Source of the DNA: a virus
Direction: 5' to 3' (one strand)
IMG/VR virus record: IMGVR_UViG_3300002123_000001
DNA: 64,000 bases
The position numbers were made by a program, and so were the translations under genes. Each line of letters begins with the position of its first letter. Positions within the stretch are counted from its first letter, which is position 1. This document shows, piece after piece, positions 3,584-56,970 of the stretch. Under the pieces are notes generated by a model. That model was given only the letters and a program-made list of their open reading frames with translations, did no database searches and was not told the origin of the DNA.

Positions 3584-4480
3584 TCAGACCACGGAGATCT
3601 GAACTTCGGATCCCAAGATATACGTCACGTACGGGATCTGGACGATTGTCTTGTCTCGGCGCGACGCACGCAACGTGGTCGTTCCTGCTTTCAACCCCCG
3701 CAGCGACAACTGCGTCTGGTTTGCTGTCAACGACACCACTGTCTTGTCGCTCATCTCCCACGTCACGTCGGACAGCGCCGTCCCCTCGAGGAGGATGCCA
3801 CTCGACGTGCGGACGGATGGGGTGATCGAAAGTGTACTTCCAATCGATAGCTGAGTCGGAAGTGCCTCCAGGTAGGAAATGGAGCTCACCACTGCGAAGA
3901 GCAGATCTGGCAAGTTCACACTCGAAGAGTCCGGTACGGAAACCGTTCTCCCTTGGTCTTCCCAAGCCTCCACTGTCACTGAGTACTTCGCGCATCGGAT
4001 GAGGTCTATACAGGCGTACCCGCTGCCGTCGGTCCGAATCGCCCTCTTGTCAGGGAGGACTCCTGCCTGGTCTAGCAGAACTGGACCGAATGCTCCAGTG
4101 AAGATGATGTCCAGCCCGCTGTGCGCTTGACCCGTCACCGTCCTGAAGTATCCAGACGCCCGGCACAGCAACGGGTCCCTCGAAACAGGTCTGTTGAGCT
4201 CCTGTGCGTACACCTGAAATGAGTTGAGCAAAGGCGCCCCGTTTGGTCCCTCTTGTACAGAGATGAGCTGCGGTTGTTGTACCGATGCCTTGAACTTGTA
4301 GAACCGAAGGCTGTACTCGAGGGTGTACAAAAGGAACCCAGCCCTACCCGCAGAGTCGGTGGTCCCCTCGGTGTAGAGCATGGTCCCACCCTTGTCGTAG
4401 ACGCGTACGAGCACCCCCGACACCGGCTCCCTCGTCTCGGAGTTCAACACGTACACGTCGACTTGCTGGTAGCTGGCCAT
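3584..4480 (-). CDS. virion fibre/decoration-like protein with C-terminal Big_2-like Ig domain, 298 aa
   Basis: C-terminal LSIGSTLSITP...VTWEMSDKTVVSL...GLKAGTTTLRAS resembles bacterial Ig-like group 2; ATGA overlap upstream. Confidence 0.65.
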   Translation of the reverse strand: MASYQQVDVYVLNSETREPVSGVLVRVYDKGGTMLYTEGTTDSAGRAGFLLYTLEYSLRFYKFKASVQQPQLISVQEGPNGAPLLNSFQVYAQELNRPVSRDPLLCRASGYFRTVTGQAHSGLDIIFTGAFGPVLLDQAGVLPDKRAIRTDGSGYACIDLIRCAKYSVTVEAWEDQGRTVSVPDSSSVNLPDLLFAVVSSISYLEALPTQLSIGSTLSITPSVRTSSGILLEGTALSDVTWEMSDKTVVSLTANQTQLSLRGLKAGTTTLRASRRDKTIVQIPYVTYILGSEVQISVV

Positions 4481-5529
4481 CAGATGCTCCTGCGCTCGGC
4501 GTAGACGACGTTGGGGACCTGCACAGTGAAAACGTCGTCCATCGTACCGAAGTCATCCCCCAAAAGCGGGAAGGACTGCACCCCCTGGTCTTCAGGGGCC
4601 ACGATGTCCCTCACGATGTCCGTCCCCGAGATGGACACCGTGTACTGAACCCCCCTCACCAAGGTGAACTGCACGTTACCGTTACGGTCCGTGACCTTCG
4701 TGTCCTGGTAGCCAGTAACCAACTTGCCCTCCACCAAGCTGCCACGCGTGGGCGAATAGACGCTCACCCGGCGCCCAGTAAGGGGGCGACCGTCGGACTT
4801 TACCAGGTAGAGGTAGCCAACCACCGTGCTGGCCTGCGTGAGCCCCATGGACCCGGTGACGGGCAGCGGCAGACTGAACTCGCTCGCCGTCCCCAGCGCC
4901 TGGTTGAAGAGGCGTGTGCGGTAGTAGCTGTCCTGCGTCCCCCGCAGGTCGACGAACCGGTAGGTGGCCCTCCCGTTGATGATGTTGATCCTGGCGTCCT
5001 GCCCCACACCCTGCGAGCTGGGCAGTTCCATGGGTAGGTTGAAGAGGGCTGCAGCCTCCCCGCCCACCACCTCGAGGACTGCCCCCGTGCCCGGACGAAC
5101 ACCTTCCAGTACCAGCAGAATCTCACCGGTGGTCGCCACCTGGGCCACGTAAGCCCTGAAGCGCCCCACCCCTGCAGCTGTGAGCTCCGCCGCCGCCTCC
5201 GCGTAGGTAATGGGGTCTGGCCCCGCCAGCACCACCTCGATGTCCTCGCTGTCGTCCAGGCGAAGAAGGAAGCTGGTGCCAGCTGCAAGGACCTGCGGCC
5301 CCACCACTGGCACCGCTGGCTCATCCGGCGCGTCACGAGGCACGCGTGCCGGGCGCCAAGCATCAGAGGTGAGCTCATAGTACGGACCATTGGCAGTGGA
5401 GTCAGACCTCCACACCTGAATCTGGTCAAAGCCTTGTACTTCTTCCTCACGCACTACCACGGTGAGGGTGACGACCTCGGAGATGGCCGCTTCATCTCCT
5501 ACGATCGGCTGGATGATGATGGTGCTCAT
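4480..5529 (-). CDS. virion fibre-like protein, 349 aa, with one IN-like repeat unit
   Basis: Beta-rich; aa 85-165 match the repeat found 5x in the sheath gene. Confidence 0.7.
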   Translation of the reverse strand: MSTIIIQPIVGDEAAISEVVTLTVVVREEEVQGFDQIQVWRSDSTANGPYYELTSDAWRPARVPRDAPDEPAVPVVGPQVLAAGTSFLLRLDDSEDIEVVLAGPDPITYAEAAAELTAAGVGRFRAYVAQVATTGEILLVLEGVRPGTGAVLEVVGGEAAALFNLPMELPSSQGVGQDARINIINGRATYRFVDLRGTQDSYYRTRLFNQALGTASEFSLPLPVTGSMGLTQASTVVGYLYLVKSDGRPLTGRRVSVYSPTRGSLVEGKLVTGYQDTKVTDRNGNVQFTLVRGVQYTVSISGTDIVRDIVAPEDQGVQSFPLLGDDFGTMDDVFTVQVPNVVYAERRSI

Positions 5530-5538
5530 GCGAGTATT

Positions 5539-9456: not shown

Positions 9457-10221
9457 CTACTTGTACTGCTCGTACTTCTTGATGATGCTGCCCTTCAAGC
9501 GGGACACCTTCGAAGGGCTCAAGCCCAATCGCTGAGCAAGCACCCCAGTGCTGGTGACCGGCATCCCGCCCTGTTGCGGGTACATCAAGTCGTACAGCCG
9601 CTGCTCTTCTGGCCCCAGGCTATGCCGGAGCAACCCAATCACCTCAGACTCGCGCTGCGCCGCGATCGGTACTGGGTCGCTCTCGAAGGGAGTTGATAGA
9701 ACGTCCCTCCGCTGCATCCCCTGAATCTGCTGTATCCTACGCGCCGTGAGCTGCCTTTGCTGCGGCAGCCCAATGTTCATGCGCTGGGCAATCTGCTCGT
9801 GTGAGGGCTCAGCCCCAAGCTCGTCTGACAGCTCCTCTTGTGCAGCCTGAATCTTGCCGATGTAGCCCGCTGGCGTCTCAGCAATGCGCGCCATGTTCTG
9901 ACGCTTCTTGTTCGTGCGGCTCACCCGGCGCAGCTGATTGTGCAAGTGCGTGCTGAACGTGGCCCCACGGTCTGGGTCGTACGTCTTCAACGCGTCGATG
10001 GCCAGATTCATCATGTTCCCACGAAGCCCCACCGCACTGGTCTGCGGCGCCTTGTGGACGTTCTGATGGTGCCTGAACACCGGCTCGAACTGCTGTAGCA
10101 CGGACTTCGTGTTGTCTGGACTTGGGTCCGACTTCCAACGCATCACCAGCTCGTGCTCCGCCTTCGTCCTATCGGCGGCCACCTTCTCCCTCTCTTGGAG
10201 ATATGCGTCGATCGGGTTCAT
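9457..10221 (-). CDS. sigma-70 family RNA polymerase sigma factor, group-3-like, 254 aa
   Basis: Region 2 (YDPDRGATFSTHLHNQLRRVSR), region 3 (LGAEPSHEQIAQRMNI), region 4.2 HTH (STGVLAQRLGLSPSKVSRLKGSIIKKY); ATG 10221. Confidence 0.8.
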   Translation of the reverse strand: MNPIDAYLQEREKVAADRTKAEHELVMRWKSDPSPDNTKSVLQQFEPVFRHHQNVHKAPQTSAVGLRGNMMNLAIDALKTYDPDRGATFSTHLHNQLRRVSRTNKKRQNMARIAETPAGYIGKIQAAQEELSDELGAEPSHEQIAQRMNIGLPQQRQLTARRIQQIQGMQRRDVLSTPFESDPVPIAAQRESEVIGLLRHSLGPEEQRLYDLMYPQQGGMPVTSTGVLAQRLGLSPSKVSRLKGSIIKKYEQYK

Positions 10222-10247
10222 GCTGCTCCGCTTACGAGCGCGCTTCT

Positions 10248-10754
10248 TCAGTGCTCGAGGAGGCGCTTGGTCCGGCTCAGGAGTGTCGGTGCTTCCACCG
10301 GTCTCCGGTTGGCGTTCGCCTGCGGCATCGCATGGCTTGCTTCGTAGTCGCCGGTTGCGGCATGGCTTAGCTGCCCTGCCAGCAGCTTGCGGTCCGCCTC
10401 CTGCGACGGCTTCTTGCCGTCGAAGTGCCGGTTCAGGAACTCCTCGCGCCCTCGTCGGAACTCCTCCAGAACGACGTTCGAGTGGTGTACCGCCGTCCCC
10501 GTCGGGTCGCTCGGCTTCATGTCCGGGTCCCCCCACAGTGCGTCGATGTTTCCTGACGCCCTCCCCTCCGGCTTGGGGTACTGGTCCGGGTTGGTTCCCA
10601 CGGTGCTTCGCCCGTTGTCTCCCGGTGCCTCCACCTCGGCTTGCTTCAGGAAGGCGTACAACTTGTCCGCGTCCTCCTGCGGGTCCGTGAGGGGAAGGCA
10701 GTCGCTCATGCTGCGTCCGTTGTATGCCATGCACGTAGCGTACCACGACCCCAC
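10248..10754 (-). CDS. hypothetical protein, 168 aa, directly upstream of sigma
   Basis: ATG ORF with better composition than the overlapping extension of the sigma ORF. Confidence 0.65.
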   Translation of the reverse strand: MGSWYATCMAYNGRSMSDCLPLTDPQEDADKLYAFLKQAEVEAPGDNGRSTVGTNPDQYPKPEGRASGNIDALWGDPDMKPSDPTGTAVHHSNVVLEEFRRGREEFLNRHFDGKKPSQEADRKLLAGQLSHAATGDYEASHAMPQANANRRPVEAPTLLSRTKRLLEH

Positions 10755-37059: not shown

Positions 37060-38004
37060 CTACTTATTGCGCATGAACGGAGGAACGTACTCCAACTCCG
37101 GGTTGTACGGGCGAATCTTCCCAGCCCTGACGTCTTCCTCGCGCTTCTTCAGCAGGTCAGCTGGGAGCTTCACCCCCAACGCTGGGAAGTCCAGCATCAT
37201 GAGACGGGTCTTGTTCTGCAGGTCAGGAACATCCTTGGACTTGCCCTCGATGACGTAGTCGAAGGCGGAGTCAGGGACATCCACCAGGTCGTTCTCCGAC
37301 TGATGCTCAGAGCCTACGGAGATCTCCGGCACTGGCCTCTTGATCCTGACGATGTAGCCGCCCCCATCCTGCACGTAGTTCATCTCTGTCTTGAAGCGCA
37401 GGTCGTTGATGACCACGTTGACCTTCGGCCGCATCATGCTGTCCTGCACCACGTGGCTGGACACCGTTGATGAGAACTGCAGCCCACGCTTCTGGTCGTA
37501 GTGACAACCGCCTTCCTGCAGGCAAGCTGCTACGCGCATCAAGTACGCTGCCCACACGTTCTCATAACAGGCTCTAGCCCATTCCGTACCCAGTGTTTGA
37601 AGGGCGTAGCGCGGGGTAAGGTACTCGACGAATACTCTCTCGTACTCCGCCGCGATGGACGCCTCAATCTCTTCTTTGGTGGGATAACGACTCTCCACCG
37701 CGGCGTTAAGATAGGCGAGGCAACGTCCATCCTCGTAAGCCATGCCGTCTTCTACGCCGTGCGGCGCCCTCCGACGACGGATGTAGCGCTTATCGGGATC
37801 GTTACGGTACTTCGACTCACCCCACACCTGGTCGTCGCTGAAGTTGAACACGTCCTGCACGAAGCGCTTCATCGGATCGGCGAACCCGATCTTCACGAAG
37901 CTGAAATGCTCCAGCAGAACGTTCGCCACGGTGTCCTTACCGGCACCGGCGCTGCACTTGTTGCCTTGCGGGTCGTAGCAGAGACCGCTGAGTGCGATGA
38001 TCAT
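37060..38004 (-). CDS. deoxynucleoside monophosphate kinase (T4 gp1-like), 314 aa
   Basis: GAGKDT P-loop, TPRYALQTLGTEWAR, VINDLRFKTE, IVRIKRP, SEHQSEN - same order as T4 dNMP kinase. Confidence 0.7.
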   Translation of the reverse strand: MIIALSGLCYDPQGNKCSAGAGKDTVANVLLEHFSFVKIGFADPMKRFVQDVFNFSDDQVWGESKYRNDPDKRYIRRRRAPHGVEDGMAYEDGRCLAYLNAAVESRYPTKEEIEASIAAEYERVFVEYLTPRYALQTLGTEWARACYENVWAAYLMRVAACLQEGGCHYDQKRGLQFSSTVSSHVVQDSMMRPKVNVVINDLRFKTEMNYVQDGGGYIVRIKRPVPEISVGSEHQSENDLVDVPDSAFDYVIEGKSKDVPDLQNKTRLMMLDFPALGVKLPADLLKKREEDVRAGKIRPYNPELEYVPPFMRNK

Positions 38005-40417: not shown

Positions 40418-41446
40418 TCAGGCCGCCACGCTCTCGTAGTAGATGGCGTAGTCCTGAGTGCCGTTCGGAGCCGAGTTCGGCCAGTACGAGCCGTACTGGC
40501 CGTTCCCCTCACCCTCGGTAACCGCTGCGGTCAGCCCGAGGATGGCGAGGGAAGTACTGGACGCCTTGATGTCGATCTTGCTGGTCGGCCCCGTCGTTGG
40601 GCTGGTCAACATCAAGTAGTTGGTGCTGGCCGTGGCGAACCCAGCTCCGCACACCGCGTTGATCGCCACCAGGATGGCAGCCAGGTCCGCCGGAGTGGCG
40701 AAAGTAACGGTGAGATCCGCCCCACCGTCGATCGCCACCACCAGCGTCTCCGTGGTCGGCATCGCCGGGACCGGGGTGACGAGGTCCACCGTGCCCGTGA
40801 CGGAAGCTGCCGTGCCCGCCGCCGCCGCCAAGAACGTACCGTTGGTGACCACGGAGCCAACCGCAATCTCCTTGATGGCCGTAGTCAGACCAGCTCGGGT
40901 CTTGATGGGCTGGCTGAGTCCGATCTTGCTCCCGAGACCGATGGCCAGCGTGGCACCCACGCCCTGACCGACGGTGAGCGTGATGCTGTCGATGTCGGTG
41001 AAGAAGTTGACGGTGTGCACCGCGCCCGCCGTCTGCATCAGCGTTCGAACCTCCGTCAGTGGCTCTCCCCGAAGACCCTTCCCCACAACAGTGGCCTGCG
41101 CCGGCTGATGTGCCGCAGTACCACCTGCTGTGGTGAACACGATCTGACGCGGGGCCGCCTGCAGGTTGGTGATGGTCGCCTGCGTGAGAACTCCCACCGC
41201 CGGCGTGACGCCGGGGAGCAGAGTCCGCGCCGCGGCCTGCGACGCGGTAGCTGCCATCATGTTGTTGGCTGCGGCTGCCAGCGCGTTGGTGAACTCCTCT
41301 ACCACGATGGAAGCAAGCGGAGCCAACGCGAGCGCGATGTCCCTTCGAAGGTCACCTACTTCACCCGGAAGACCCGACTTGCCCGGAGCGGCATAGCTCG
41401 GGTTCACGGCACGTGCATTGCTGAAAAGACCAGATCCGACTGTCAT
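40418..41446 (-). CDS. virion structural protein with one IN-like repeat unit, 342 aa
   Basis: ATG 41446 after AGGAGGAGCAAC; monocistronic between divergent promoter region and double terminator; aa 249-322 of the ORF match the sheath repeat. Confidence 0.7.
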   Translation of the reverse strand: MTVGSGLFSNARAVNPSYAAPGKSGLPGEVGDLRRDIALALAPLASIVVEEFTNALAAAANNMMAATASQAAARTLLPGVTPAVGVLTQATITNLQAAPRQIVFTTAGGTAAHQPAQATVVGKGLRGEPLTEVRTLMQTAGAVHTVNFFTDIDSITLTVGQGVGATLAIGLGSKIGLSQPIKTRAGLTTAIKEIAVGSVVTNGTFLAAAAGTAASVTGTVDLVTPVPAMPTTETLVVAIDGGADLTVTFATPADLAAILVAINAVCGAGFATASTNYLMLTSPTTGPTSKIDIKASSTSLAILGLTAAVTEGEGNGQYGSYWPNSAPNGTQDYAIYYESVAA

Positions 41447-41481
41447 GTTGCTCCTCCTGCTGGTGCAGCTTAGCTCGAGTA

Positions 41482-41534
41482 CACAGTTTCCCACCGGAAC
41501 CCGGCATAAGAGAATCGAGGGAAGAATAAGGAGG
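41482..41534 (+). promoter_or_regulatory. P6, weaker cassette promoter motif plus SD
   Basis: CACAGT 41482-41487, N17, CATAAG 41505-41510; AAGGAGG 41528-41534. Confidence 0.45.
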
Positions 41535-41538
41535 CTCT

Positions 41539-41790
41539 GTGGATCCCAACGAACTACTTCTTCGGCTGCTCACCAACTGCAAGGCCATGCGGGTCACGCT
41601 CGATAGAACGGACGACCCGGTGGCCGAGTTCGAAAGGCAGATGGAAAACGGCATCGTGGAGGACGTCGACCAGATTGTGGAAGACGTGCTCAACCTTACA
41701 ACTTGGCTTTCCAACGGCGGCTTCGCCCCCGACTGGGCAGCCCACCATGACACCCTGCCACCAGCTGCGGAGAGAGACGATGTCTACTAG
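41539..41790 (+). CDS. hypothetical acidic protein, 83 aa
   Basis: GTG start 4 nt after AAGGAGG. Confidence 0.65.
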   Translation: MDPNELLLRLLTNCKAMRVTLDRTDDPVAEFERQMENGIVEDVDQIVEDVLNLTTWLSNGGFAPDWAAHHDTLPPAAERDDVY

Positions 41791-45271: not shown

Positions 45272-46030
45272 TTACCCCGGTAGGTTGGCGCCACGAACCG
45301 CGCGAGTGGAGTGAGCTGGAGCTTCTGGGATGCCCAAGAACGCGCTGCTCTGGTTGGCCCCACCGGCATTGGCGGAGTTGGAACTGATCAGGGTCAGCTG
45401 GCTGATGGACACCGGCACCATCCGCTCGAACTGCACGCTGACGTTCTCCTGCAGGAGCACGCCCTGTGCGTCCGTCGCCATGGCGTGGTTCGGCAGGTAG
45501 CACGCTTCGAAGTACCCGGCGCCGAGAGCATCGAGGTTGATGTCCCGGATGTACATCAAGAGCCCTATGGGCTGCGCGAAGAGGTCGGACGCCAGGTTGT
45601 AGAAGATGTTCTCGTACCCCGGCGGGATGATCACGTCGTGCTGGTTCACCATGTTCTGCGGTGACGAGCCGAGGTTCGGCCACATCGGAGCGACGATGGT
45701 GGGGCTGATCGTGTCGTTGTAGTAGGCGTACAGGATGCGCAGCAAGCTCGCACCGTGGTAGTAGACCCGCCCCAGGCTGAGCTGCCCCACAGTACGACCC
45801 GAGATGAAGTAGCTGCGCTCCGAGCCCAGCTCGAAGATGCGGCTGAACTGCCGGGTGTGCGTCACGTTGAAGTTCTGCAGCACCCCGATGGGGAGCACGA
45901 TCTGATTCGCGTTCTCACCCGTGCCGCTCAGCGCCTGCCCGAAGAAGGTGGCACCGCCGATGTTCGCGATGCGCGGAGGACCCGCGGCAATCATCAAGAA
46001 GCCGGCGTTGACGTACTGCCCGTCCACCAT
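45272..46030 (-). CDS. putative tail tube protein, 252 aa
   Basis: First structural gene after the sheath; beta-rich; assignment by synteny only. Confidence 0.45.
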   Translation of the reverse strand: MVDGQYVNAGFLMIAAGPPRIANIGGATFFGQALSGTGENANQIVLPIGVLQNFNVTHTRQFSRIFELGSERSYFISGRTVGQLSLGRVYYHGASLLRILYAYYNDTISPTIVAPMWPNLGSSPQNMVNQHDVIIPPGYENIFYNLASDLFAQPIGLLMYIRDINLDALGAGYFEACYLPNHAMATDAQGVLLQENVSVQFERMVPVSISQLTLISSNSANAGGANQSSAFLGIPEAPAHSTRAVRGANLPG

Positions 46031-46803
46031 CCCCGACTGAACGTAGTTGGTGTACGGTGCCCAGTCACTGAAGTTGCCGCTAATGTTCCTTACCTCCGGC
46101 TAGACGCCCTTCGGAGCGTCCGTCTCACTGTAATGAGGCTAACGTGAAACTGCGCGGCGAGGTCGGGGTGAGACAACCCGCCTAGCTGATACAGTTCCTT
46201 CATCCTCTGCTTCTCTGAGGGCAGCAGAAACACTTTACCGGTAGTAGCAGCTCTACCCTTACCGGCCATGTCGGCCATGTTGTCCGCATGCGTGCCCAGA
46301 AATAAGTGGTCCACTCTTACACACTTGCGGTTGTCACAGGTGTGAAGTACGAACAAGTTGTCCGGCACCAAGCCGTTGATCAACTCGTAGGAGAACACGT
46401 GCGCTCTGACGGTCTTGCCCAGCACCTTGAGAATACCGTATCCCTCATCGTGCAGAGCTCCAGTCCATTCCCAACAACCATCGCTGGACCCTGGGATGTA
46501 TACCTTCTCCCAAAAGCGACACAGGGGTTTACCACACGTGAAGAACTTACCGTGCCGCAGCTGATTAGCGCGTACTAGCTTCGTCTCCCCGCATTGGCAC
46601 GTGCAGTTCCAATAGATGGTGCCGAACTTATCGTTCGGCGCGCGTGAGACCGCCGTAAGAAGACCAAAGGTCTCCCCCGTAATGTCTCGCGTCGTTCCAT
46701 CCTCGTTACGCACTTACCGGTATCCTTCTACCTTGTAGTCTACCAGATGCCCGGGCATCCTCAGTCCCAGAGGCAGCTGGGCCTGGCGAGTATTGTGAAA
46801 TCA
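46031..46803 (-). mobile_element. Free-standing homing-endonuclease insertion between sheath and tube genes
   Basis: HNH gene with its own flanking non-coding DNA and palindrome GATGCCCGGGCATC upstream. Confidence 0.4.
46090..46713 (-). CDS. HNH homing endonuclease with C-terminal HTH, 207 aa
   Basis: CWEWTG...GYG...AHVFSYEL...VLHTCDNRKCVRVDHLFLGTHADN; GTG start. Confidence 0.8.
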   Translation of the reverse strand: MRNEDGTTRDITGETFGLLTAVSRAPNDKFGTIYWNCTCQCGETKLVRANQLRHGKFFTCGKPLCRFWEKVYIPGSSDGCWEWTGALHDEGYGILKVLGKTVRAHVFSYELINGLVPDNLFVLHTCDNRKCVRVDHLFLGTHADNMADMAGKGRAATTGKVFLLPSEKQRMKELYQLGGLSHPDLAAQFHVSLITVRRTLRRASSRR

Positions 46804-47049
46804 TTAGAAACCGCCCCAGTCCACTGCGTCAGGCGACATCTTTCCACCGCCAATCGCCGGGTGTGCCATGCCACCCAAACTCTTGGGCTGGATCAGCTTC
46901 TTTGCCGCTGAAGCCGCCGGCTTGCCCGCCCTCTCCGACCGCACGAGCGTGTCGGCCACGCCATGAAGGCGGGCCAACACCTCGGGTGGAAGGCCGGCGG
47001 CCTTCATCATCTCGTCACGCATCGCGAACATCATTGCGCTAGTGATCAT
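46804..47049 (-). CDS. small protein with N-terminal FAMRDEMMKAAG motif, 81 aa
   Basis: ATG 47049 after AGGAG. Confidence 0.55.
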   Translation of the reverse strand: MITSAMMFAMRDEMMKAAGLPPEVLARLHGVADTLVRSERAGKPAASAAKKLIQPKSLGGMAHPAIGGGKMSPDAVDWGGF

Positions 47050-47095
47050 GGCGGCTCCTGGCATCGATAGCGAGTCAACTCACTGCGCATCACAC

Positions 47096-48187
47096 TCATA
47101 CAAGTAAAGTCAACTTGACGTAGTTGCATGGAATCGGGACATCCAGCGTGGTGTCGATGAGCACCGTGTCCCGGTTGTTCTCGTCCTGGATGATGTTGTC
47201 GAGGTTGCCACCGATGAGCACGCCGTGCTCCACGAGGAATCCGAACATGCCCTGCACCGTGGTGCCGAGCGAGTCCAAGAACCCCTGGGTGATGTTGAAC
47301 CGGCCGATGAAGTTTCGAATCCCCTTGCGGAGGAACTTCGCCGTGAAGTCCACCACCTTCGTCACCGAGTCCGTGCGGGTCTCGATGCTGGTCTGGTCCG
47401 TGGTCACCGCCATGCGGGCGAAGATGGGGGTCCCGGTGCCTTCCTGGATGAAGATCCAAGTCCCGCCACCTGCCATGATGTCCAGCTGAGCTTCGCTGAA
47501 CGAGTCGTTCGAGCCGACCACCCCAGTGAACCCCGCGACCGGGAAGTTCGTGAACGACTGCTGCGGAGGCTGCTGCCCGATGCAGCCAACCACCGCCGCG
47601 TTCATGTAGTAGCCGTCGATCAGCTGCTCGAGACCTTCGATGCTGGCTCGGCACTTGTCGGGGAAGGTCATCCAGAACCGGCGGTTCGAGTACCCCTGTC
47701 CCATCTTGTTCATGGTCTCGGCGATGGCCTGCTTGTCGCGCGTGCCATCCACCGTCACCAGCTCACGGCCGCGGATGCGGATCGAGAACAACTCGCCCAC
47801 CAGCGGCAGAGGAAGTACATCCTCGGCGTAGAAGTCGTCGTCGTTCTCGCCGCTTAGGAACTCCGCTGGGGTGATGCGGACCGTGATCTGCTGACCACTC
47901 ACCGACTTGATGGAGTAACGCTTGTCGTCCGCCGACACGTCGAGGAACAACCCAGAGCTGACGGCAATCACCGGCTGCATCGGGTCGATTCCCGCGTTCT
48001 GCAACAGCGCCGCCAGGTTCCCGACCCCGGTGTTGAATGTGAACGTGTTGGTGGCTTCACCAACCGAACCGCTCGCTACCAGGGTGTCGATGTCCCGGGT
48101 GGGAACCGACGGGTTCCACATGACGATGCGCTCACCGCGCTGCGTCGGCTCGGACATGAAGTTGACGTGGGTGTTGAACACCTGCAC
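47096..48187 (-). CDS. tail sheath protein, C-terminal part (continues 48132..50900 after a +1 frame change; GTG 48187 only if independent)
   Basis: ERIVMWNP..., RRFWMTFPD, AGFTGVVG, and C-terminus NNRDTVLIDTTLDVPIPCNYVKLTLLV follow the conserved sheath layout. Confidence 0.65.
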   Translation of the reverse strand: MQVFNTHVNFMSEPTQRGERIVMWNPSVPTRDIDTLVASGSVGEATNTFTFNTGVGNLAALLQNAGIDPMQPVIAVSSGLFLDVSADDKRYSIKSVSGQQITVRITPAEFLSGENDDDFYAEDVLPLPLVGELFSIRIRGRELVTVDGTRDKQAIAETMNKMGQGYSNRRFWMTFPDKCRASIEGLEQLIDGYYMNAAVVGCIGQQPPQQSFTNFPVAGFTGVVGSNDSFSEAQLDIMAGGGTWIFIQEGTGTPIFARMAVTTDQTSIETRTDSVTKVVDFTAKFLRKGIRNFIGRFNITQGFLDSLGTTVQGMFGFLVEHGVLIGGNLDNIIQDENNRDTVLIDTTLDVPIPCNYVKLTLLV

Positions 48188-50900
48188 AACCGATCTCGTC
48201 GTGGGTGAGCGGCGCGATGGCGTACACCTCGTAAGCCTCGATGAACTCCGCCGCCCGAACGTACGCCTCCAACGTGCCATCCGGCATGTCGGCACTGATG
48301 GCGTCCACGCCAAGCCCCGTCACCTGTGCGGACGGAGCATTGATGAGAGCGTAGAACAACCCCAGCGCCAGCGGGTTGGATGCGCTGACCGGGGAGAGCG
48401 CATTGTCGAGCGCCACCGTGTCATCGAACCGAAGAAGCCCCTGCTGCGCCGCCAGTGCCGTCACGTCACGACGCAGGGCGGTGTAGCTGATGTACATCGA
48501 GGAGTTCACCGTGATGCGGGCGCCGCTCACCGCGTCGCGGACGATGCCGTCCTTGACCGTAACGTTGTTGTTCAGGTCGAGAATCATCTCCGGGAAGGGG
48601 CGGGTGAGGTTCGACACCGCATCCGTCAGGTTCATCGCCTGAATCCAGAAGCGGGCGCCCACATCCCCAATGACCACCGACTTGTCGATCTTCAGCACCG
48701 AGTTGACCCCCGTGGGGTTCACCTTCAGCACCGTGCCGTACTGCACGCCGTCGATGTAGAGAATATCCCCAGGGAGAGGGGGATGCGACACGCCAGTACC
48801 GACGGCGCCAGCGTAGATGGTACTGGCACCCGTTCGGGTATGCTCGAACAGTCCGAGCACGTTCATGGCGGTGCCGCCAACAATGCGAACGCTGGCGCCC
48901 TGACCAGTGGCCGTCGTGGTGAAGATGAGACCCAGCAAGCCGGACTGGCTGGCAGTAGTGCCGAGGATGGCCGCGTTGATCTCCCCCAAGAACGTCGCGA
49001 CGCTGACTGAGGCCGCCGTGAAGGTACATGTCTGAACAGCGCCGCCATCCACCGACACCTGCAGGGTCAAGCCCTGCACATCGGCAGGGAGCGTGATGCC
49101 GTCGAGGTCGACCGAGCCGATGATGGACACCGCTGCCGTGCCCGGGTCGATCTCCGCGAGAGCAGTGCCGCCGAGGATAGCGAAGTACCCGTCCTCTCCA
49201 TACTCGGTGTGCTGCAGGGTGACGACGCCAGCGTTCTGCGTGGCCGTAAGCTTGCCACCCGCGGCTGCACCCATGACGGCGTTGATCTGATCTACCGTCA
49301 ACGCTGGCGTGGTCGCCCCGTCAAACACCACAGTCTGCACCTGCCCACCGTCCGTCAGGATGAGCGTGGCGCCGTCCGTGACGCTCGTCATCACCGAAGA
49401 ACCGACCAGGCTGGGGCGAGTGGCGGCGGCCGTGAAGTTGTTGCCGGGGAAAGAGAGGAGCGGGGTAACCGCATCGCCATTCCCATCGTCGATGGCTTCG
49501 ATGGCCACGCCATCGTCGAACGGGCTGGTGCCTACTTCGAGATCACCCACCGTCAGCCCGAGCAGGGCAAGAGCAGTACCCCCGATCACGGAGATGCTGG
49601 CGTTCTCGCCAAGTGCGTTCGACGTCAGTACCAGAAGGTTCGTCACCGCCTGGAGACTGGCCGTCACGCCGGTGATACCAGACGTGATTTCCCCAGCCGC
49701 TGCCGCTGCACTGATCACGTCCGTGAACGTCACGGTCTGTGAGGCGCCGCTGTCGATGGACAAGATGAGCGTCAACCCCAACAGGTCAGCACCAGGGGCG
49801 TAGCCCAGCGTGGTCAGGTCCACCGTGCCGACCATGGCAGCGGCACCAGCGCTAAACGGGATGATGGGAACAGCCACCGTGCCCATCAGCGTGCCGCCAG
49901 TGATCTCCACCCGAGACGACCCACCCGGGGTAGAGCTGGTGATCCGAAGCTTGCCGAGATCACCACCAGCCACCGTGACGATGTCGACCGTGGCCCCCAC
50001 GATGCCGGCGTCGAGCTCCGCCGCCAGCTGGGCAGCCGTCAACACGTTCGAAGAAACCAGCACCGACTGCTCTTCACCACCATCGATTCGGACGAACAGC
50101 GTCTCCCCCTGAACATCGGTTGGGAAGACCACCGTACCGTCGATGATGCTCGCGTCGCTCAGAAGAACGGCCTGGCCACCGGTCACCGTTCCGTACCGAA
50201 GCAACGCCGAAGTACGGCTTGCCTCACGCACGCTCGTGCCCGTACCCATCGACATCCACACCCGCAAGCTGTCCTGCTCGAACGCCAGCTCGCTCAGGTT
50301 TCCGCGGGGGTCTGGGAAAGCCACCGGGGGGATGACCGTGTCGTACTGGTTGTACGCATCCAGCCCGTAGTACAACCTGCCGACGCCGACAGCGAAGGTA
50401 CTCGCCACCACAGCGTCCGTACCAGGTTGAACCTGGATGGTCTGAAAGATGCCGGTGCCGACCGTCTTCAGCCAGAACTTGTCGGACCCCACCACCTCCG
50501 CCCGAGCAGCCGTCATCGCCACCAACGCAAACGCGGCGTTGATCTGCCCGACCACCGAGGATGGAAGAAGCCCGCCACCGGCGGGGTCGCTGAACGTGAT
50601 CGTGATGTCGGGGGAGTTGTTGACGCTCACCACAAGGTCGAGCCCGTTCAACCCCATGTACTTCTTCACCACCGCGCCGGTGCCCGCCTTGGCGAGGAAG
50701 AACGCCGGGAGGGAGATGAGCGCATCCGTGTTCAAGAGCTGCCCGCCGGCGCCGTCGCTCTCCAGAAGTTCCACGATCTGCTTGCACACGCCGATGACGC
50801 AGGGAACCAGCGTAGGCGTGATGACCGTTGCAGTGACAGCACGGAACGCCTGGATGACCTGAACGCCTGGGCGCGGGAGGGTGTTTAGAGCAGTAGCCAT
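48132..50900 (-). CDS. tail sheath protein, N-terminal part with five inserted repeats, 922 codons
   Basis: N-terminus PGVQVIQ...TPTLVPCVIGV and ...EVYAIAPLTHDE match sheath motifs; the last 20 codons look out of frame. Confidence 0.7.
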   Translation of the reverse strand: MATALNTLPRPGVQVIQAFRAVTATVITPTLVPCVIGVCKQIVELLESDGAGGQLLNTDALISLPAFFLAKAGTGAVVKKYMGLNGLDLVVSVNNSPDITITFSDPAGGGLLPSSVVGQINAAFALVAMTAARAEVVGSDKFWLKTVGTGIFQTIQVQPGTDAVVASTFAVGVGRLYYGLDAYNQYDTVIPPVAFPDPRGNLSELAFEQDSLRVWMSMGTGTSVREASRTSALLRYGTVTGGQAVLLSDASIIDGTVVFPTDVQGETLFVRIDGGEEQSVLVSSNVLTAAQLAAELDAGIVGATVDIVTVAGGDLGKLRITSSTPGGSSRVEITGGTLMGTVAVPIIPFSAGAAAMVGTVDLTTLGYAPGADLLGLTLILSIDSGASQTVTFTDVISAAAAAGEITSGITGVTASLQAVTNLLVLTSNALGENASISVIGGTALALLGLTVGDLEVGTSPFDDGVAIEAIDDGNGDAVTPLLSFPGNNFTAAATRPSLVGSSVMTSVTDGATLILTDGGQVQTVVFDGATTPALTVDQINAVMGAAAGGKLTATQNAGVVTLQHTEYGEDGYFAILGGTALAEIDPGTAAVSIIGSVDLDGITLPADVQGLTLQVSVDGGAVQTCTFTAASVSVATFLGEINAAILGTTASQSGLLGLIFTTTATGQGASVRIVGGTAMNVLGLFEHTRTGASTIYAGAVGTGVSHPPLPGDILYIDGVQYGTVLKVNPTGVNSVLKIDKSVVIGDVGARFWIQAMNLTDAVSNLTRPFPEMILDLNNNVTVKDGIVRDAVSGARITVNSSMYISYTALRRDVTALAAQQGLLRFDDTVALDNALSPVSASNPLALGLFYALINAPSAQVTGLGVDAISADMPDGTLEAYVRAAEFIEAYEVYAIAPLTHDEIGCAGVQHPRQLHVRADAAR
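48843..50651 (-). repeat. Five tandem ~80-aa protein repeats (flagellin-IN-motif-like) inside the sheath gene
   Basis: Units near aa 84-176, 262-345, 371-452, 505-585, 605-686 share L.L.vDGG..QTvtF....t...v..IN......A.....L.LtS...G..s.i.i.GGTA...LGL. Confidence 0.6.
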
Positions 50901-50928
50901 TGACGCGCTCCTGTTGAAACCGCGGTTA

Positions 50929-51852
50929 CTAAGCAGATTCTTTCACGCAGGGGTCCGTTATGGGAACTCCCGGCACTCCCCGGAACCCAGGCCGGAAGGG
51001 ACGGGCAGATCTCACCGTCACTTCAACAGCAGGGTTTAGGGGATGTGGTTGCTTGGGCAGGAAGTAAGATCTCCTACCTCCTGGGTCTGGTGTTCTTCCA
51101 TACGCGTCACTAGCCGTTGTAAACGCGGCAGGTGGGCACGTCTGGACCAACAATGGAACAGACCCCTCATGCTCGTGCGACAAGTCTGGGGGGCCAGAAC
51201 TGTGCACGGATGAAAGCCTAGAGGATACGCGCGCCTCGATGCTCTGCACGATGCGCATGCCCAGCGGAGTAAAGGCTGAGGTGCGGATGAACTGGAACGG
51301 AAAGGACACTGATGTGCAGATCCACTCTCGTCCCTTGTCGTCCGCAACAATGCTGCCCGCTGGAGAGGGCGCGCTCATCTGCGGGCGCATCCCAGTGTCG
51401 AACAACAGGCTGTTGGAAATCAGGAGGTCTCTAAGTAGCCAGGTGTACTCCATCACCACCCAAGCCACGCTCTCACTCTCGATGGACTCCCGACTGCAGC
51501 AGTTCATCGTCATCGTACCCGCGACGAGAACCCCCTTGGTCTTTCTCCCAGTGTCCGCCTCGTACTGCATCATGTCGTCAAGGCCCAGCGTGGCGAACTG
51601 AATGGGACCTCGTGTCAGCGTCACCAACGGGCGCTTGGCGATCACCTCTTCCTTCACCGTTGCTTCGTCCCGAACAACTATCTCCGCGACGCTGTCGTCC
51701 TCATCCCAGTGCCAGCACCCAACACCCGGAGGAGCTGCACTGAACAACCCTTGAAGAAACCCCACGAAGGTCTCTCGAAGAGCGACCATCGGGTTGTACT
51801 TGAAGCTACCTGGGAACTGCCCAAGATGGGCTTCAGGTACCTTCGCCGACAT
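50929..51852 (-). CDS. hypothetical tail/neck protein, 307 aa
   Basis: ATG 51852 after AGGAGG. Confidence 0.65.
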   Translation of the reverse strand: MSAKVPEAHLGQFPGSFKYNPMVALRETFVGFLQGLFSAAPPGVGCWHWDEDDSVAEIVVRDEATVKEEVIAKRPLVTLTRGPIQFATLGLDDMMQYEADTGRKTKGVLVAGTMTMNCCSRESIESESVAWVVMEYTWLLRDLLISNSLLFDTGMRPQMSAPSPAGSIVADDKGREWICTSVSFPFQFIRTSAFTPLGMRIVQSIEARVSSRLSSVHSSGPPDLSHEHEGSVPLLVQTCPPAAFTTASDAYGRTPDPGGRRSYFLPKQPHPLNPAVEVTVRSARPFRPGFRGVPGVPITDPCVKESA

Positions 51853-52168
51853 TGGCCGCCTCCTGCTCTCGCGCAGCCCAGTTCTCCCGAGCCTTACCCA
51901 GCATGTGCTCCTGCAGCCCAGAGGCCGCCAGCCCAGCAATCCCTCCAGCGATGGGCACCCCGTAGTTCAACCAGGCGGGACTGCTGGCTCTGCCCTTCAA
52001 CGCGTAGCGGTTCAAGGCTTCCATCCCGGCGTACCCAAGCCCAGACCCAATCGCCATGCCAGCCACGCCCTTCACGTAGGGCATGATGGGATGCTCAGCG
52101 CGCGGAGGAACTTCTCCCTCCGCGATCTTCAACATCTCATCGGCAAAGCTTCGAAATGAAGGCGTCAT
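51833..52168 (-). CDS. small glycine-zipper protein, 111 aa
   Basis: N-terminal SFADEMLKIAEG; GVAGMAIGSGLGYAG and IAGGIAGLAASG. Confidence 0.65.
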   Translation of the reverse strand: MTPSFRSFADEMLKIAEGEVPPRAEHPIMPYVKGVAGMAIGSGLGYAGMEALNRYALKGRASSPAWLNYGVPIAGGIAGLAASGLQEHMLGKARENWAAREQEAANVGEGT

Positions 52169-53109
52169 GGGTTTCTCGGGTAGCCCCCAGGGTACAGCTG
52201 AAAGATGAAGGGGAAGTCGGCCTCTCGAACGGTGTCGTTGGTCAGGTTCTGCGGGTTGATGTAGTTGCGCTTCGGGTTGAACGAGATGTTCTTCAGGTCG
52301 TCGTCGAAGATCAGAGGTATCAGGTACTCGATATCCGTCGTTGGTAACAAGTGTAGCCCCAGATTCTGAAGAATCGGAGCTCGCCCTTGTTCGGTCTCAT
52401 CCACGGTACGAACTACCCACCGCTTGTTCTCACCCTCGATCACGAGATCATCCGGCTTCACGGGTGGGAATGCCCCCATCCTGGCCGTCGTACTCGTCTG
52501 CTGTAGCCGCCCCTGTGTAGAAGCCTGCTCGTTCTTCGCCGTGGGGTCGAACTGCACCCATGCCTCGATGGGGTGGTGGTACCCACGGATGAACCCAGTG
52601 TCGTAGCAAGTACGGCAACCGGATATCGTGCGCTTCTGCAGCTTGGGGTTCCAGCACTCCGAGCACCGCTGGCCCATGGTGCGCGCCGGCAAAACCCAGC
52701 ATCGTCGGCCGTTGAACTCGCTGAACAGCAATCCCAGATGCCTCCGCAGCTCCTCTGCCACCAAGTCTGGTACGGGCTCCTTCTGTTCCGGGCCAAAGTC
52801 GAAGGTGTTCCCCGTCTCCTTGTGCTTCACCCGGAGCAAGTAGAACCACTTGCGGTAGATGTTGCCGACCTTGACCCGGTTGTCGACGAACATGTACCGG
52901 TCTTCTAGCTCCGGTGACAACTCCTCCCACGGCCCCATCGGGGCCTCGCTGCGCAGCACCTGGAACGTGAAGTCCAACACGTCCGTCATCGTGTCGGCGA
53001 GGTCCCAGTAGACCTCGTTGTAATCGATGCTCAAGGACAGAATGCGCAGCCGTACAATGCGCAGGGGGCAGCGCGCAGGGCCTTTGATGTAAAGCCCATC
53101 ACCACTCAT
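52165..53109 (-). CDS. hypothetical virion protein with CSEC...CRTC motif, 314 aa
   Basis: ATGA overlaps on both sides. Confidence 0.7.
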   Translation of the reverse strand: MSGDGLYIKGPARCPLRIVRLRILSLSIDYNEVYWDLADTMTDVLDFTFQVLRSEAPMGPWEELSPELEDRYMFVDNRVKVGNIYRKWFYLLRVKHKETGNTFDFGPEQKEPVPDLVAEELRRHLGLLFSEFNGRRCWVLPARTMGQRCSECWNPKLQKRTISGCRTCYDTGFIRGYHHPIEAWVQFDPTAKNEQASTQGRLQQTSTTARMGAFPPVKPDDLVIEGENKRWVVRTVDETEQGRAPILQNLGLHLLPTTDIEYLIPLIFDDDLKNISFNPKRNYINPQNLTNDTVREADFPFIFQLYPGGYPRNP

Positions 53110-54011
53110 CGGACGGCAGCCATCCTCGCACCAGCTGATGCAATGGGCGGAGTGTTGGGCATCGGAGCTCCTGTCTCAGCAGACTCCGATCGCATCTTTT
53201 CCATCTGCTCCTTGTAGCCCTTCATCCCGCCGCCGATGACGCCAGTGAGCATCCCCGTCGCACCTCCCATGGCGGCACCTGGGGCTGCACCTACTCCGCC
53301 GAACAGTGCGCCTCCCGCGGCGCCACCTGCAGCCCCAACACCGGTCTCGTAGGCTCCGCCCTTCAGGGCCCCCTTGGTAGCCCCGATTGCACCTTGCCGG
53401 GCACCCTCCAGCCCCCCTTGGCGATACCCAGCCAGTCCACCGGCTGCAGCTGGAAGAAGAACAGGGAGAAGGGCCACCTTCTGAAGGAAGGCCACCTTTT
53501 CTCCTCGCCACCACTTGTTCGCGTCTTGCAGACCACTCTGTACGTCATCAGAAGACAAAGATCTAAGAGAGGACCCAATACCCTCCGCGTCCTGACGAAG
53601 CTTACCAGCAGTGGGGCTAGCAAGAGCTCCTGTAATAGCTCCTGCGCCTGCTCCGACACCCGCTCCAAGCGCGGTGCCAATGCCCGGCTTACCTAAGAAC
53701 ATCCCTGCTCCTCTACCAATCACCCCACCAGCGATTCCACCAGGTATGCCAAGAGCTAGAGCATTAGGGGCTCTGTAAAGAAACGGATGCTTCTCCGCAT
53801 AGTCTGCGGAACGCGCCTTCGACTCCTGCACCTGCTGAGCACTAAGACGAAACGCCCTCTCTGCAGCCGACAGCTGTTCCGGCGTGATACTTCCTTCCAT
53901 AGGAAGGAGCTCACTGGCCTCCCACATATCTGGTGTCTTCGCTACCTTCTCAGCGTTCACGGCGTTCGAGCTCAACGCAGAAGGCTTGGGCGCAGGCTTG
54001 TTAGCCTGCAT
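53106..54011 (-). CDS. glycine-zipper protein, 301 aa
   Basis: GIPGGIAGGVIGRGAGMFLGKPGIGTALGAGVGAGAGAITGA and a second Gly-rich block. Confidence 0.7.
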   Translation of the reverse strand: MQANKPAPKPSALSSNAVNAEKVAKTPDMWEASELLPMEGSITPEQLSAAERAFRLSAQQVQESKARSADYAEKHPFLYRAPNALALGIPGGIAGGVIGRGAGMFLGKPGIGTALGAGVGAGAGAITGALASPTAGKLRQDAEGIGSSLRSLSSDDVQSGLQDANKWWRGEKVAFLQKVALLPVLLPAAAGGLAGYRQGGLEGARQGAIGATKGALKGGAYETGVGAAGGAAGGALFGGVGAAPGAAMGGATGMLTGVIGGGMKGYKEQMEKMRSESAETGAPMPNTPPIASAGARMAAVR

Positions 54012-54589: not shown

Positions 54590-56010
54590 GCTCTCCCAAG
54601 TCGACGAATGCTCCCCTCGATGCCTGCACCGCGCAGACCAAAGTTGAGAGCTGTCCCTGCTGCACGGCGAGCAGCTACCTGCGTGGGAAACTGCTGCGCC
54701 ATCTGCGTGTCCACGATCTGCTTCTGCAGACGAGCTGATGCCGCCGCCTGCGCGTAGCTGCCATCAGTTGTTCGCTGCAGCTCGCTGAGACGCTCCTGCA
54801 TCTCACCAACGTTCTTCCCGCGGTCGACAGCCACCGAGCCAGCGCCAACCGCTGCCCCGAGGGCTGCCCCGCCAAGGGCTCCGTAGAACGCGGTCTTCAC
54901 CGAGCTCGTCTTCTCCCCCATGGGAGGAACGCCCCCGGCCGGGTGCGCCGTCGAGGTGGGTGGTCCAGGAGGCCCCCCGGCCGGGGCGTTCATGTCTTTT
55001 GCCCCCGCCGGCGGCGAAGCCCCAGGAGCCGTCTTCTGGTCCGGGGCTTTCCCAGCCCCAGGAGCACCGCCCTCCGGCGCCATCGCCTGCCCTTCCATCG
55101 GCGGTTCAGCAGGCGGTGCCGGGGGCAAAGCCCCGCCGAGAGAGCCACCCAGAGCCCCCGCAGCGTCCGCCGCCGGGTCCTGCGAAGCCACCTCCATCAT
55201 CATCTGCCGCTGCTTCTGCATCGCCATCCGCAGATTGGCGGCAATCTCCGTCTGCTGCAGCGCCTCATCCCGGGCCTTCATCGCCTCCTGCAAAGACGCC
55301 TGAATGCGCTGAGCAGTGCTATCAGCCTCCGCTTGAAGCTGCTCCGTGCCAGCCGACATCTGAAGCGCTTGATCTTGAGCCTGCTGAACAGCTTGCTCCG
55401 CATCCCGCGCCTTGCTCTTGAAGTAGTCGGCCTCATTGGAGTTCTGCGCCTCCTGCCCCATCGCCTCAGCCTGCAGGTAGTTCGCGGGCATGAGCTCTGG
55501 CTTGTCCGTCGGAGCCGTCATCTGGGCCTCTGGACCTCCCTGCGCCAAGGCTGGTTCATCAGCAGCCGACTTCACCCAAGCAGCCATCCTGGCAGCCGCC
55601 GTCTTCAGTACGGCATCCACCGGAGATGCAGCAGAAGCAGACCGAGCAATGTCGACCTCCGTCCCCAGCTCCCCACCAAGGCTTCTTCCAGCCAGCCCCC
55701 CAATGGCAGCTCCCCCCAATGCACCCATCGGGCCCCCAACGAGACTGCGCCCAAGAGCTCCGCCAGCGGCCAGCCCACCGATTGCCCCAAGAGCCTTTCC
55801 GGTGCGCTCACCACGGCGAGACTTGTCCCGCTCATGTTCGGCTGCCGTAGAAGAAACCCCGCGCTGACGACCAGTCTCCTTGAGCTCGTCGTCCGTGGGC
55901 GTCTCCTTTGCGGCCGTCTTCGGAAACTCACGAAGCTCGAGGAAGTACTCACTCGCCTCCGACAGCGGGATGGTACGAGCCTCGAGCAGCAACTTCTCTA
56001 GTGAGCTCAT
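54586..56010 (-). CDS. glycine-zipper / Ala-Gln-rich virion protein, 474 aa
   Basis: ATGA overlap; GKALGAIGGLAAGGALGRSLVGGPMGALGGAAIGGLAG. Confidence 0.7.
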   Translation of the reverse strand: MSSLEKLLLEARTIPLSEASEYFLELREFPKTAAKETPTDDELKETGRQRGVSSTAAEHERDKSRRGERTGKALGAIGGLAAGGALGRSLVGGPMGALGGAAIGGLAGRSLGGELGTEVDIARSASAASPVDAVLKTAAARMAAWVKSAADEPALAQGGPEAQMTAPTDKPELMPANYLQAEAMGQEAQNSNEADYFKSKARDAEQAVQQAQDQALQMSAGTEQLQAEADSTAQRIQASLQEAMKARDEALQQTEIAANLRMAMQKQRQMMMEVASQDPAADAAGALGGSLGGALPPAPPAEPPMEGQAMAPEGGAPGAGKAPDQKTAPGASPPAGAKDMNAPAGGPPGPPTSTAHPAGGVPPMGEKTSSVKTAFYGALGGAALGAAVGAGSVAVDRGKNVGEMQERLSELQRTTDGSYAQAAASARLQKQIVDTQMAQQFPTQVAARRAAGTALNFGLRGAGIEGSIRRLGRA

Positions 56011-56453
56011 GTCACCTCCACCACAGCAACGAAGCCGTCCATCCGGGGGCTGATACTGAAGTCGATCAGGCGTGGGGCAGCCCCATCCGGTGGGTTGTAT
56101 ACGGTCCCCGAGATGTCCTTGGCCTTGCTGAACCCAAAGTACGCATTGGCCGTGCCATCCTTGTCCAGCACCACCGCGGACGAAACGTCCGTGTCCCGGA
56201 TGCGCAAGGACCCTTCGTAGAACTGCACCGTGAGCGTTGCGTGCACAGCCACGATCTGATCTTTGATGTCCCCGACGGACAACCCCTCCCCCGTTGGGTC
56301 GTTGAACGTCACCGTCCCAGCAGGCGTGCCGAAGATGAGTGTGAGACCATGCAGCCCCAGCAGCTTACCGCTCATCTGCTTGCCGCTGACGATGCCACCG
56401 TTGAGGGTGTGCTCTGCAGCGTCCGTGTCGCCAAACCGTAGAATCTTCAACAT
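56007..56453 (-). CDS. small beta protein with one IN-like repeat unit, 148 aa
   Basis: aa 34-108 match the sheath repeat. Confidence 0.65.
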   Translation of the reverse strand: MLKILRFGDTDAAEHTLNGGIVSGKQMSGKLLGLHGLTLIFGTPAGTVTFNDPTGEGLSVGDIKDQIVAVHATLTVQFYEGSLRIRDTDVSSAVVLDKDGTANAYFGFSKAKDISGTVYNPPDGAAPRLIDFSISPRMDGFVAVVEVT

Positions 56454-56463
56454 CTTTTGGCCC

Positions 56464-56970
56464 CTAGTAGCTGAGATAGGACGCGTTCACGGCAAAGAGT
56501 TCCGAGTGCACCCCAACATTTCCGGGGCCGAGGATACCCTCGATGTTCGCGGCCACCTTGACCTTTTGCTTCATCTGGTCAGTGCTGCTCTTGAAGTACT
56601 GCAGCCAGTTCATGATCAACGGGGTCTTGTCATTGACACCCACGTTGATGCCGCCGTTCGAGTAGTTGATGTGGTTCCTCGTCTGAAGTAGACCCACCGA
56701 CTCGAGCAGCGTGATGACCGTCATGCGAAGAAGAAGAGCTTGCTGGCTCTTCCCAAGAAACGTACTGATGTCCCAGTTGCCAATCCATGGAGGCGTCCCG
56801 TTGAAGTCCGCCATCGCATCCATCACCGCCCAGGCAATGATGCGATCGTTGGACTCCTCACCAGCTATGAGCCGGTTGAGCTGCGCGAAGTCACGCGTGT
56901 ACAAGCGTACCGTCTGAACGAACGCCTGCATCGCGGGGCTCAGCCCCTGAACGCCTTCTAGAACGGCCAT
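56464..56970 (-). CDS. hypothetical head-tail joining region protein, 168 aa
   Basis: ATGA overlap; position after capsid genes. Confidence 0.6.
   Translation of the reverse strand: MAVLEGVQGLSPAMQAFVQTVRLYTRDFAQLNRLIAGEESNDRIIAWAVMDAMADFNGTPPWIGNWDISTFLGKSQQALLLRMTVITLLESVGLLQTRNHINYSNGGINVGVNDKTPLIMNWLQYFKSSTDQMKQKVKVAANIEGILGPGNVGVHSELFAVNASYLSY

Follow-up and report, generated by a model that had tools for sequence, protein, structure and literature searches.

A predicted phage tail sheath with five FliD-D3-like units at three insertion sites

Introduction

The sheath protein gp6 of Vibrio phage XM1 (PDB 7kh1; 495 amino acids, aa) carries one insertion domain (InD), described as unique to XM1, which was reported to resemble domain D3 of FliD and to lie at the periphery of the solved sheath; its authors proposed that the domain had been acquired from a flagellar cap gene of the host (PMC10457771). 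Our literature searches turned up no second publication that connects FliD D3 with phage sheaths. Here, we describe a contractile-tail sheath gene in a 64,000-nucleotide (nt) stretch of viral DNA, IMG/VR record IMGVR_UViG_3300002123_000001 (the window). Its product, 1267 aa long once two open reading frames (ORFs) are joined, carries five units of this kind at three sites, on a core only distantly related to that of gp6.

The sheath is about twice as long as gp18 of phage T4 (659 aa). In gp18 (domains I-II), in gp29 of phage phiKZ and in the sheath of phage 812, extra domains are likewise nested between an N-terminal piece and a C-terminal core, but those outer domains are neither IN-type repeats nor variable in copy number. 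Small autonomous domains that occur in variable number in several virion proteins of one phage are familiar from T4 Hoc and from the Big_2 and FN3 domains of tails, and immunoglobulin-like and other accessory decoration domains of phages are generally read as serving weak adhesion to carbohydrate. The units described here differ in having an alpha/beta, FliD-D3-like fold instead of a beta-sandwich, and adhesion by them is conjectural. With FliD D3 and the Pfam family Flagellin_IN they share a length of ~80 aa, the order beta-beta-alpha-beta-beta-beta, and the motif '(a)IN(a)', which closes the helix and precedes 'L.LtS..tG'. In contrast to FliD and FlgK, the protein that bears them is a phage sheath, which lacks both FliD_N/FliD_C and the terminal domains of FlgK.

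Results

Five repeat units in the sheath

The sheath gene occupies 47096..50900 on the minus strand, within a block of genes transcribed from that strand. Its five units, each ~77-92 aa long, lie between an N-terminal core piece of ~80 aa and the conserved core of the sheath, which starts at ~aa 700, and their starts are spaced 99-179 aa apart. All are encoded on the minus strand: U1 at 50376..50651 (aa 84-175), U2 at 49863..50114 (aa 263-346), U3 at 49551..49781 (aa 374-450), U4 at 49143..49376 (aa 509-586) and U5 at 48846..49079 (aa 608-685). A first-pass annotation, made from the window sequence by itself, had described five tandem ~80-aa repeats at 48843..50651. The five units are found within this span, but they are not strictly tandem, and two conserved non-repeat segments are interspersed among them. 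One is beta-rich, contains FPDPRGNL and separates U1 from U2 (50115..50375, minus strand; aa 176-262); the other, the DDGNGD segment, separates U3 from U4 (49377..49550, minus strand; aa 451-508; IEAIDDGNGDAVTP / IEAIDDGNGDAVTPLL).

An all-versus-all alignment of the units, as the first-pass annotation had proposed, was made with eight units of the window, the five of the sheath and three in other proteins (see below). Their similarity was significant, at 17-47% pairwise identity, with U3 and U5 forming the closest pair. No DNA similarity between units was detected by blastn. Since there is no similarity at the DNA level and the amino acid identity is only 17-47%, the units are ancient copies and not the product of a recent expansion, and recent tandem duplication is ruled out on the same grounds.

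AlphaFold2 modelled U5, from an alignment of 58 related units (A1), as a compact beta-beta-alpha-beta-beta-beta(-short helix) fold with a predicted local distance difference test score (pLDDT) of 94.2. The same secondary-structure pattern occurs four times in the full-length model of P0005, a four-unit homolog. As modelled, then, the units are autonomous folded domains of ~80 aa.

Relation to the flagellar IN motif and FliD D3

When PDB sequences were searched with the A1 profile using hmmsearch, the top four matches were all FliD (HAP2) chains: 5fhy of Pseudomonas (E 6.6e-4), 6sih and 9gsx of Campylobacter (7.1e-4 and 8.6e-4) and 5xlj of Serratia (7.9e-3). Each covered profile positions ~4-69, and the next match had E 0.47. 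A Foldseek search with the U5 model placed XM1 gp6 (7kh1_A6) first, followed by FliD of Bdellovibrio, E. coli, Serratia, Salmonella and Campylobacter. The predicted structure of U5 aligned with FliD 5h5v over 75 columns with a query TM-score (TMq) of 0.67 and a root-mean-square deviation of 3.2 A, and with 6kty, 5xlj, 9m6i, 6sih and 9gnz with TMq 0.59-0.65; identity between units and FliD domains was only 15-25% by Foldseek. The full-length P0005 model also matched FliD of H. pylori (6iwy, E 3.3e-7), and hhalign placed the unit on residues 137-194 of E. coli FliD, around DAINNAKAGVSASI...YRLSVTSNDTG (DAINNA). Among BFVD structures, the unit matched tail sheath proteins, among them an uncultured phage's 1117-aa 'tail sheath protein' and the sheath of Shewanella phage SppYZU05, as well as proteins of 927-1306 aa named 'baseplate protein J-like'.

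The A1 profile was further searched against 1.84 billion cluster representatives; 2817 clusters matched at E<=1e-3, of which 670 also passed E<=1e-10. Flagellar proteins were retrieved with several units each: P0130, with six full-length units, is FlgK by TIGR02492 (211.5 bits; cutoff 170.75), and P0253, with five, matches the N-terminal and C-terminal parts of E. coli FliD (1e-14 and 1e-17). A separate homologous-protein search with the unit alignment returned no matches, probably reflecting the limit of a word prefilter with short domains.

When the 58 units of A1 were scanned singly against Pfam, 11 matched Flagellin_IN (PF07196; best E 2.6e-4), the only family matched by more than one of them. 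P0122 and P0129 scored 20.0 and 18.2 bits against PF07196, below its gathering threshold of 22.7 bits. The first-pass annotation had likened the repeats to the flagellar IN motif and had suggested a Flagellin_IN search. That search succeeded with some related units and failed with the window's own, and strict membership of PF07196 does not hold because the window units fall below the Pfam reporting level. The likeness itself is upheld by the FliD chains that head both the PDB profile and the fold searches, by the retrieval of FlgK and FliD and by the Flagellin_IN matches of the related units. The family consensus is 'A..IN...........L..T....G....I', and the literal 'IN' is kept in four of the eight window units (QINAA in U1, QINAV in U4, EINAA in U5 and AINAV in the unit near 40 kb) and substituted in U2, U3 and the units near 5 kb and 56 kb. 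The resemblance to the flagellar IN motif is thus supported as homology at the level of profile and fold.

Of the top 148 matches to the unit profile, the largest group consists of proteins of 1400-1850 aa with ~8 IN-type units (P0125, P0122, P0134 and ~90 related clusters), which are not sheaths. In these proteins the units are flanked by a conserved N-terminus of ~170 aa (ILGYLPGTFR...) and a C-terminus of ~500 aa. Neither terminus has a Pfam or NCBIfam match, and the sole PHROG match is a family of unknown function over the unit region. The composition of this family suggests a source of high guanine-cytosine (GC) content.

Identity as a contractile-tail sheath

A full-length AlphaFold2 model was made for P0005 (57% identical, 1145 aa) from a 120-sequence alignment (A2). 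Its mean pLDDT was 89.1 and its predicted TM-score (pTM) 0.75; residues 1-29 were unstructured (pLDDT <50), and the C-terminus of this single-chain model ended in beta-strands, which would fit extended terminal arms of the kind that form an inter-subunit beta-sheet 'handshake' in sheaths. By Foldseek, the model matched the solved sheaths of phage 812, DSY3957 (3hxl), Lin1278 (3lml), diffocin (6gkw) and R-pyocin (3j9q), and further those of PVC, AFP, the Streptomyces contractile injection system and T4 gp18 (E between 2.7e-7 and 1e-2, prob ~1.0). On this model, the protein has the canonical sheath core and C-terminal domain fold of the gp18/pyocin/PVC superfamily. At the sequence level, the C-terminal part of the sheath matched PHROG tail sheath families weakly (phrog_279, E 3.6e-4), and residues 801-1267 were found by tblastn, 26% identical, in Salmonella phage Arash as well as in Vibrio phages D181/D148/D69.

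The stretch found by tblastn runs across a frameshift. In the window, the gene is split into two ORFs in different frames, 48132..50900 (922 aa) and 47096..48313 (405 aa). The part upstream of the frameshift (48194..50900, minus strand, within the first ORF) is colinear with the single-ORF homologs P0001-P0120 and encodes joined residues 1 to ~902, comprising the N-terminal core piece and the five IN-type units, then a middle domain rich in beta-strands and finally the beginning of the core. The part downstream (47096..48190, minus strand) encodes joined residues 904-1267, with the conserved sheath core and the C-terminal domain. Three-frame translation showed a clean hand-over between frames at ...YAIAPLTHDE(I)|VVQVFNTHVNFMSEPTQRGERIV, the downstream side beginning VVQVFNTHV. 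The best database relative, P0001 from locus L052, is 98% identical, reads THDETVAQVFN at the junction, and consists of one uninterrupted ORF, exactly 1267 aa long. The first-pass annotation was therefore right to join the two ORFs, and its estimate of ~1290 aa is corrected to 1267 aa.

Three-frame translation and DNA alignment with L052 located a 1-nt insertion at 48191..48193 on the minus strand, with one extra T in the window at ~48193 (GAGA-CGG vs GAGATCGG). The insertion site (GAG ATC GGT) is neither slippery nor a homopolymer, and the sheath gene is an uninterrupted single ORF in all 49 related IMG/VR loci. A programmed frameshift is ruled out because the site is not slippery, L052 lacks the extra T and all relatives have one ORF; the split is a 1-nt insertion, most likely either an error made in sequencing or assembly or a recent mutation, which may be inactivating, as judged from these alignments.

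Copy number and insertion sites in the sheath family

More than 211 homologous metagenomic sheaths were found, of 940-1280 aa, many on contigs of 180-200 kb. The window region 46000..52000 had no blastn match among GenBank phages, and the sheath had only four weak tblastn matches there. By these searches, the phage stands very far from those in GenBank. It belongs to an uncultivated clade of roughly 185-200-kb phages with few cultured representatives and dozens of relatives on IMG/VR and metagenome contigs of 180-200 kb.

Among the best 120 homologs, three units were the rule (n=90), with four units in 13 proteins, five in 16 and two in one, and sheath length grew by ~100-110 aa per added unit. 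The FPDPR and DDGNGD segments served as conserved anchors that define three insertion sites: A before FPDPR, B between the anchors and C after DDGNGD. Occupancy was scored in the 74 of 120 homologs in which both anchors were located, leaving 46 unclassified. Site A always held one unit, site B 0-2 and site C 1-3. In the window, U1 occupies site A, which is filled once in every classified homolog; U2 and U3 occupy site B, where U3 is a second copy and most homologs have one unit; U4 and U5 occupy site C, with U5 as second copy. This gives an occupancy of 1|2|2, as compared with 1|1|3 in other five-unit proteins, and the five-unit state was therefore reached by different routes. Across these sequences, the copy number of the unit is evolutionarily labile, and the module appears to have been gained, lost and swapped within the phage clade.

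Single units in other proteins of the window

The first-pass annotation had also reported the unit in four other proteins, which it took to be virion proteins. Three of these are recovered at the positions it listed. All three lie on the minus strand: one at 40529..40750, near the C-terminus of a 358-aa protein (40418..41494); one at 5032..5280, in a 349-aa protein (4480..5529); and a divergent one at 56127..56354, in a 148-aa protein (56007..56453). A hidden Markov model (HMM) of the five sheath units, searched against the window ORFs, matched 4483..5538(-) with E 2e-8, 40421..41569(-) with E 2.9e-8 and 56010..56486(-) with E 0.005. A family-wide unit HMM, built from the units of the 120 sheath homologs, gave E 2.5e-7, 3.9e-16 and 5.4e-6 for the units near 5, 40 and 56 kb, the match near 56 kb now extending along the whole unit. 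None of 5370 reversed or shuffled decoys of window ORFs did better than E 0.5, so that the similarity between units stands well above background, as the first-pass annotation had supposed. The unit HMM searches found no fourth non-sheath protein with a unit at E <0.5 in the window.

The unit near 56 kb is closest to U1, and its gene lies three genes downstream of the gene for a putative major head protein. Orthologs of the 148-aa protein were found in 39 of the 49 related loci and those of the 358-aa protein in 38. The window and L017 forms of the 358-aa protein contain the IN-type unit, whereas in the orthologs of L020 (16014-17117) and L016 (16333-17385) a tandem second copy of the protein's own N-terminal ~120-aa domain takes its place; the last ~25 residues are kept in both forms. 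By sequence comparison, this replacement is a direct example of module swapping. The 'shuffled module' of the first-pass annotation is thus supported by this swap and by the 2-5 copies at three sites in the sheath.

Searches of PDB sequences with the 349-aa and 358-aa proteins gave nothing useful beyond a weak PknB PASTA match of the unit near 5 kb (E 0.045). The adjacent genes 3584..4480(-) and 4480..5529(-) have weak matches to CarboxypepD_reg/prealbumin-like beta-sandwich domains (E 4e-7 and 0.014), below the Pfam cut-offs; in the 4480..5529 protein this match is C-terminal, beside the IN-type unit.

Neighbouring genes

Almost all neighbouring genes in the window lack annotation by PHROGs, Pfam and NCBIfam. 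A 252-aa gene follows the sheath in 48 of 49 loci; its product, which has no Pfam or PHROG match, we assume to be a putative tail tube protein. In the window, a free-standing gene at 46090..46713(-) stands between the two; its product, an HNH endonuclease (Pfam HNH_3, E 2.8e-11), has a C-terminal helix-turn-helix. Homologous HNH genes occupy this site in only two of the 49 loci (L035 and L030), and the gene is absent from most relatives, such as L001, where the 252-aa gene comes directly after the sheath. It looks like a mobile homing-endonuclease insertion. The tail genes are followed, a few kb downstream, by a gene for a deoxynucleoside monophosphate kinase at 37060..38004(-) (phrog_139, E 1.2e-31), a layout also seen in L001. 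The head-tail module contains a Gly/Ala-rich low-complexity protein of 301 aa with long GGxxGG runs and no PHROG match (53106..54011(-)). Among large unannotated ORFs, a 429-aa protein (9457..10746(-)) matches Sigma-70 region 3 (E 1.6e-7) and is possibly a phage-encoded sigma factor.

Discussion

We favour the reading that this is a 1267-aa sheath bearing five outer domains of the FliD-D3/IN type, placed peripherally and serving weak adhesion and/or reinforcement of the sheath lattice; we consider it probable, if well short of secure. The units would project from the outside of the tail, as the gp6 insertion domain does at the periphery of the XM1 sheath, and would move as rigid passengers during contraction, forming a thick outer coat. 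We infer for them an adhesive or stabilising function: most likely they would adhere weakly to polysaccharide or other polymers of a surface, reinforce the lattice laterally, or do both. On this reading, at least three further phage proteins have received the same module as a graft. The first-pass annotation spoke of a heavily decorated tail surface, and outward exposure can reasonably be inferred from the insertion topology together with the peripheral XM1 domain.

Several points weigh against this reading. The orientation of the units and their contacts with neighbouring subunits are taken from that same topology and from XM1, and to our knowledge no one function of FliD D3 is generally accepted. 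Every classified homolog contains U1 together with a unit at site C, and for these two at least the role may be a structural necessity and not decoration. The sheath gene is frameshifted in the window sequence and may thus be non-functional in this genome copy. In Foldseek, the single unit reached only weak E-values (0.1-2), though TM-scores and probabilities are good. Finally, the window's five sheath units have no Pfam match at E<=10, and whole window proteins, the three with single units among them, lack Flagellin_IN as well; we do not count this null as a refutation, because the IN region of E. coli FliD likewise went unreported in a Pfam scan at E<=0.01.

The units might instead be mainly structural, making lateral or inter-ring contacts that stiffen a long or wide sheath or set its metastability, with no part in adhesion. 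The invariance of U1 and one site-C unit fits such a role, and so does the pTM of the 1145-aa multi-domain model, which suggests a defined packing of domains and not beads on a string; in flagella, moreover, the D2-D3 domains of FliD build an oligomeric cap plate. We nevertheless think this unlikely, since sites B and C vary between 0 and 3 copies among close relatives with the same core, which an accessory role accommodates more easily, and since small proteins of the phage that are unrelated to the sheath contain this module too. At the other extreme, the repeat signal could be a compositional artefact of a high-GC protein rich in Ala, Gly, Thr and Val. The units are indeed rich in these residues, those of the window lack a Pfam match and the separate homologous-protein search came back empty, and yet decoys of the same sequences stop at E 0.5 where real matches reach 1e-6 to 1e-16. 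The compact AlphaFold2 fold (pLDDT 94), the convergence of independent sequence and fold searches on the FliD domain and the retrieval of FlgK and FliD with 5-6 full-length units each effectively refute an artefact, which we regard as scarcely credible.

Two further explanations take the flagellar connection literally. In one, the array is a flagellum-directed device of a flagellotropic phage, whose IN domains bind flagellar filaments or caps through homotypic FliD-like contacts. The module is common to FliD, FlgK and some flagellins, and the XM1 authors proposed that InD came from a host flagellar cap gene (PMC10457771). Against this, our analysis gave no sign of the host, of flagellar binding or of recent transfer, the units share just 15-25% identity with FliD domains and diverged anciently from each other, and the sheath is an unusual place for primary receptor binding; we judge it very unlikely. 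In the other, broader explanation, the IN/FliD-D3 domain moves as a surface module between axial proteins of flagella and proteins of contractile tails, the sheath arrays form a dedicated adhesive coat and the sheath becomes an adsorption organelle as well as a contractile motor. This strikes us as a bold and distinctly improbable proposal. Were the coat real, 2-5 copies per subunit would amount to hundreds to thousands per tail, binding host polymers or flagella along its whole length. Were the module mobile in this sense, exchange would link the outer domains of FliD, FlgK and flagellin with sheath, baseplate-J-like and other virion proteins.

Returning to the peripheral outer domains that we favour, the sheath is a multi-copy, multi-site form of the FliD-like sheath insertion already known from XM1, and the finding by itself reveals no new mechanism. 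It ties the Flagellin_IN 'motif', of unknown function, to an autonomously folding domain common to flagellar cap and hook-associated proteins and to phage contractile tails, and it makes the XM1 insertion, described as unique, one instance of a module that is widespread among the clusters retrieved here. The clade, with its sheaths of 940-1280 aa and 2-5 copies, is a natural experiment on how much extra mass a sheath tolerates, and the permissive insertion sites identified in it are useful for engineering contractile injection systems.

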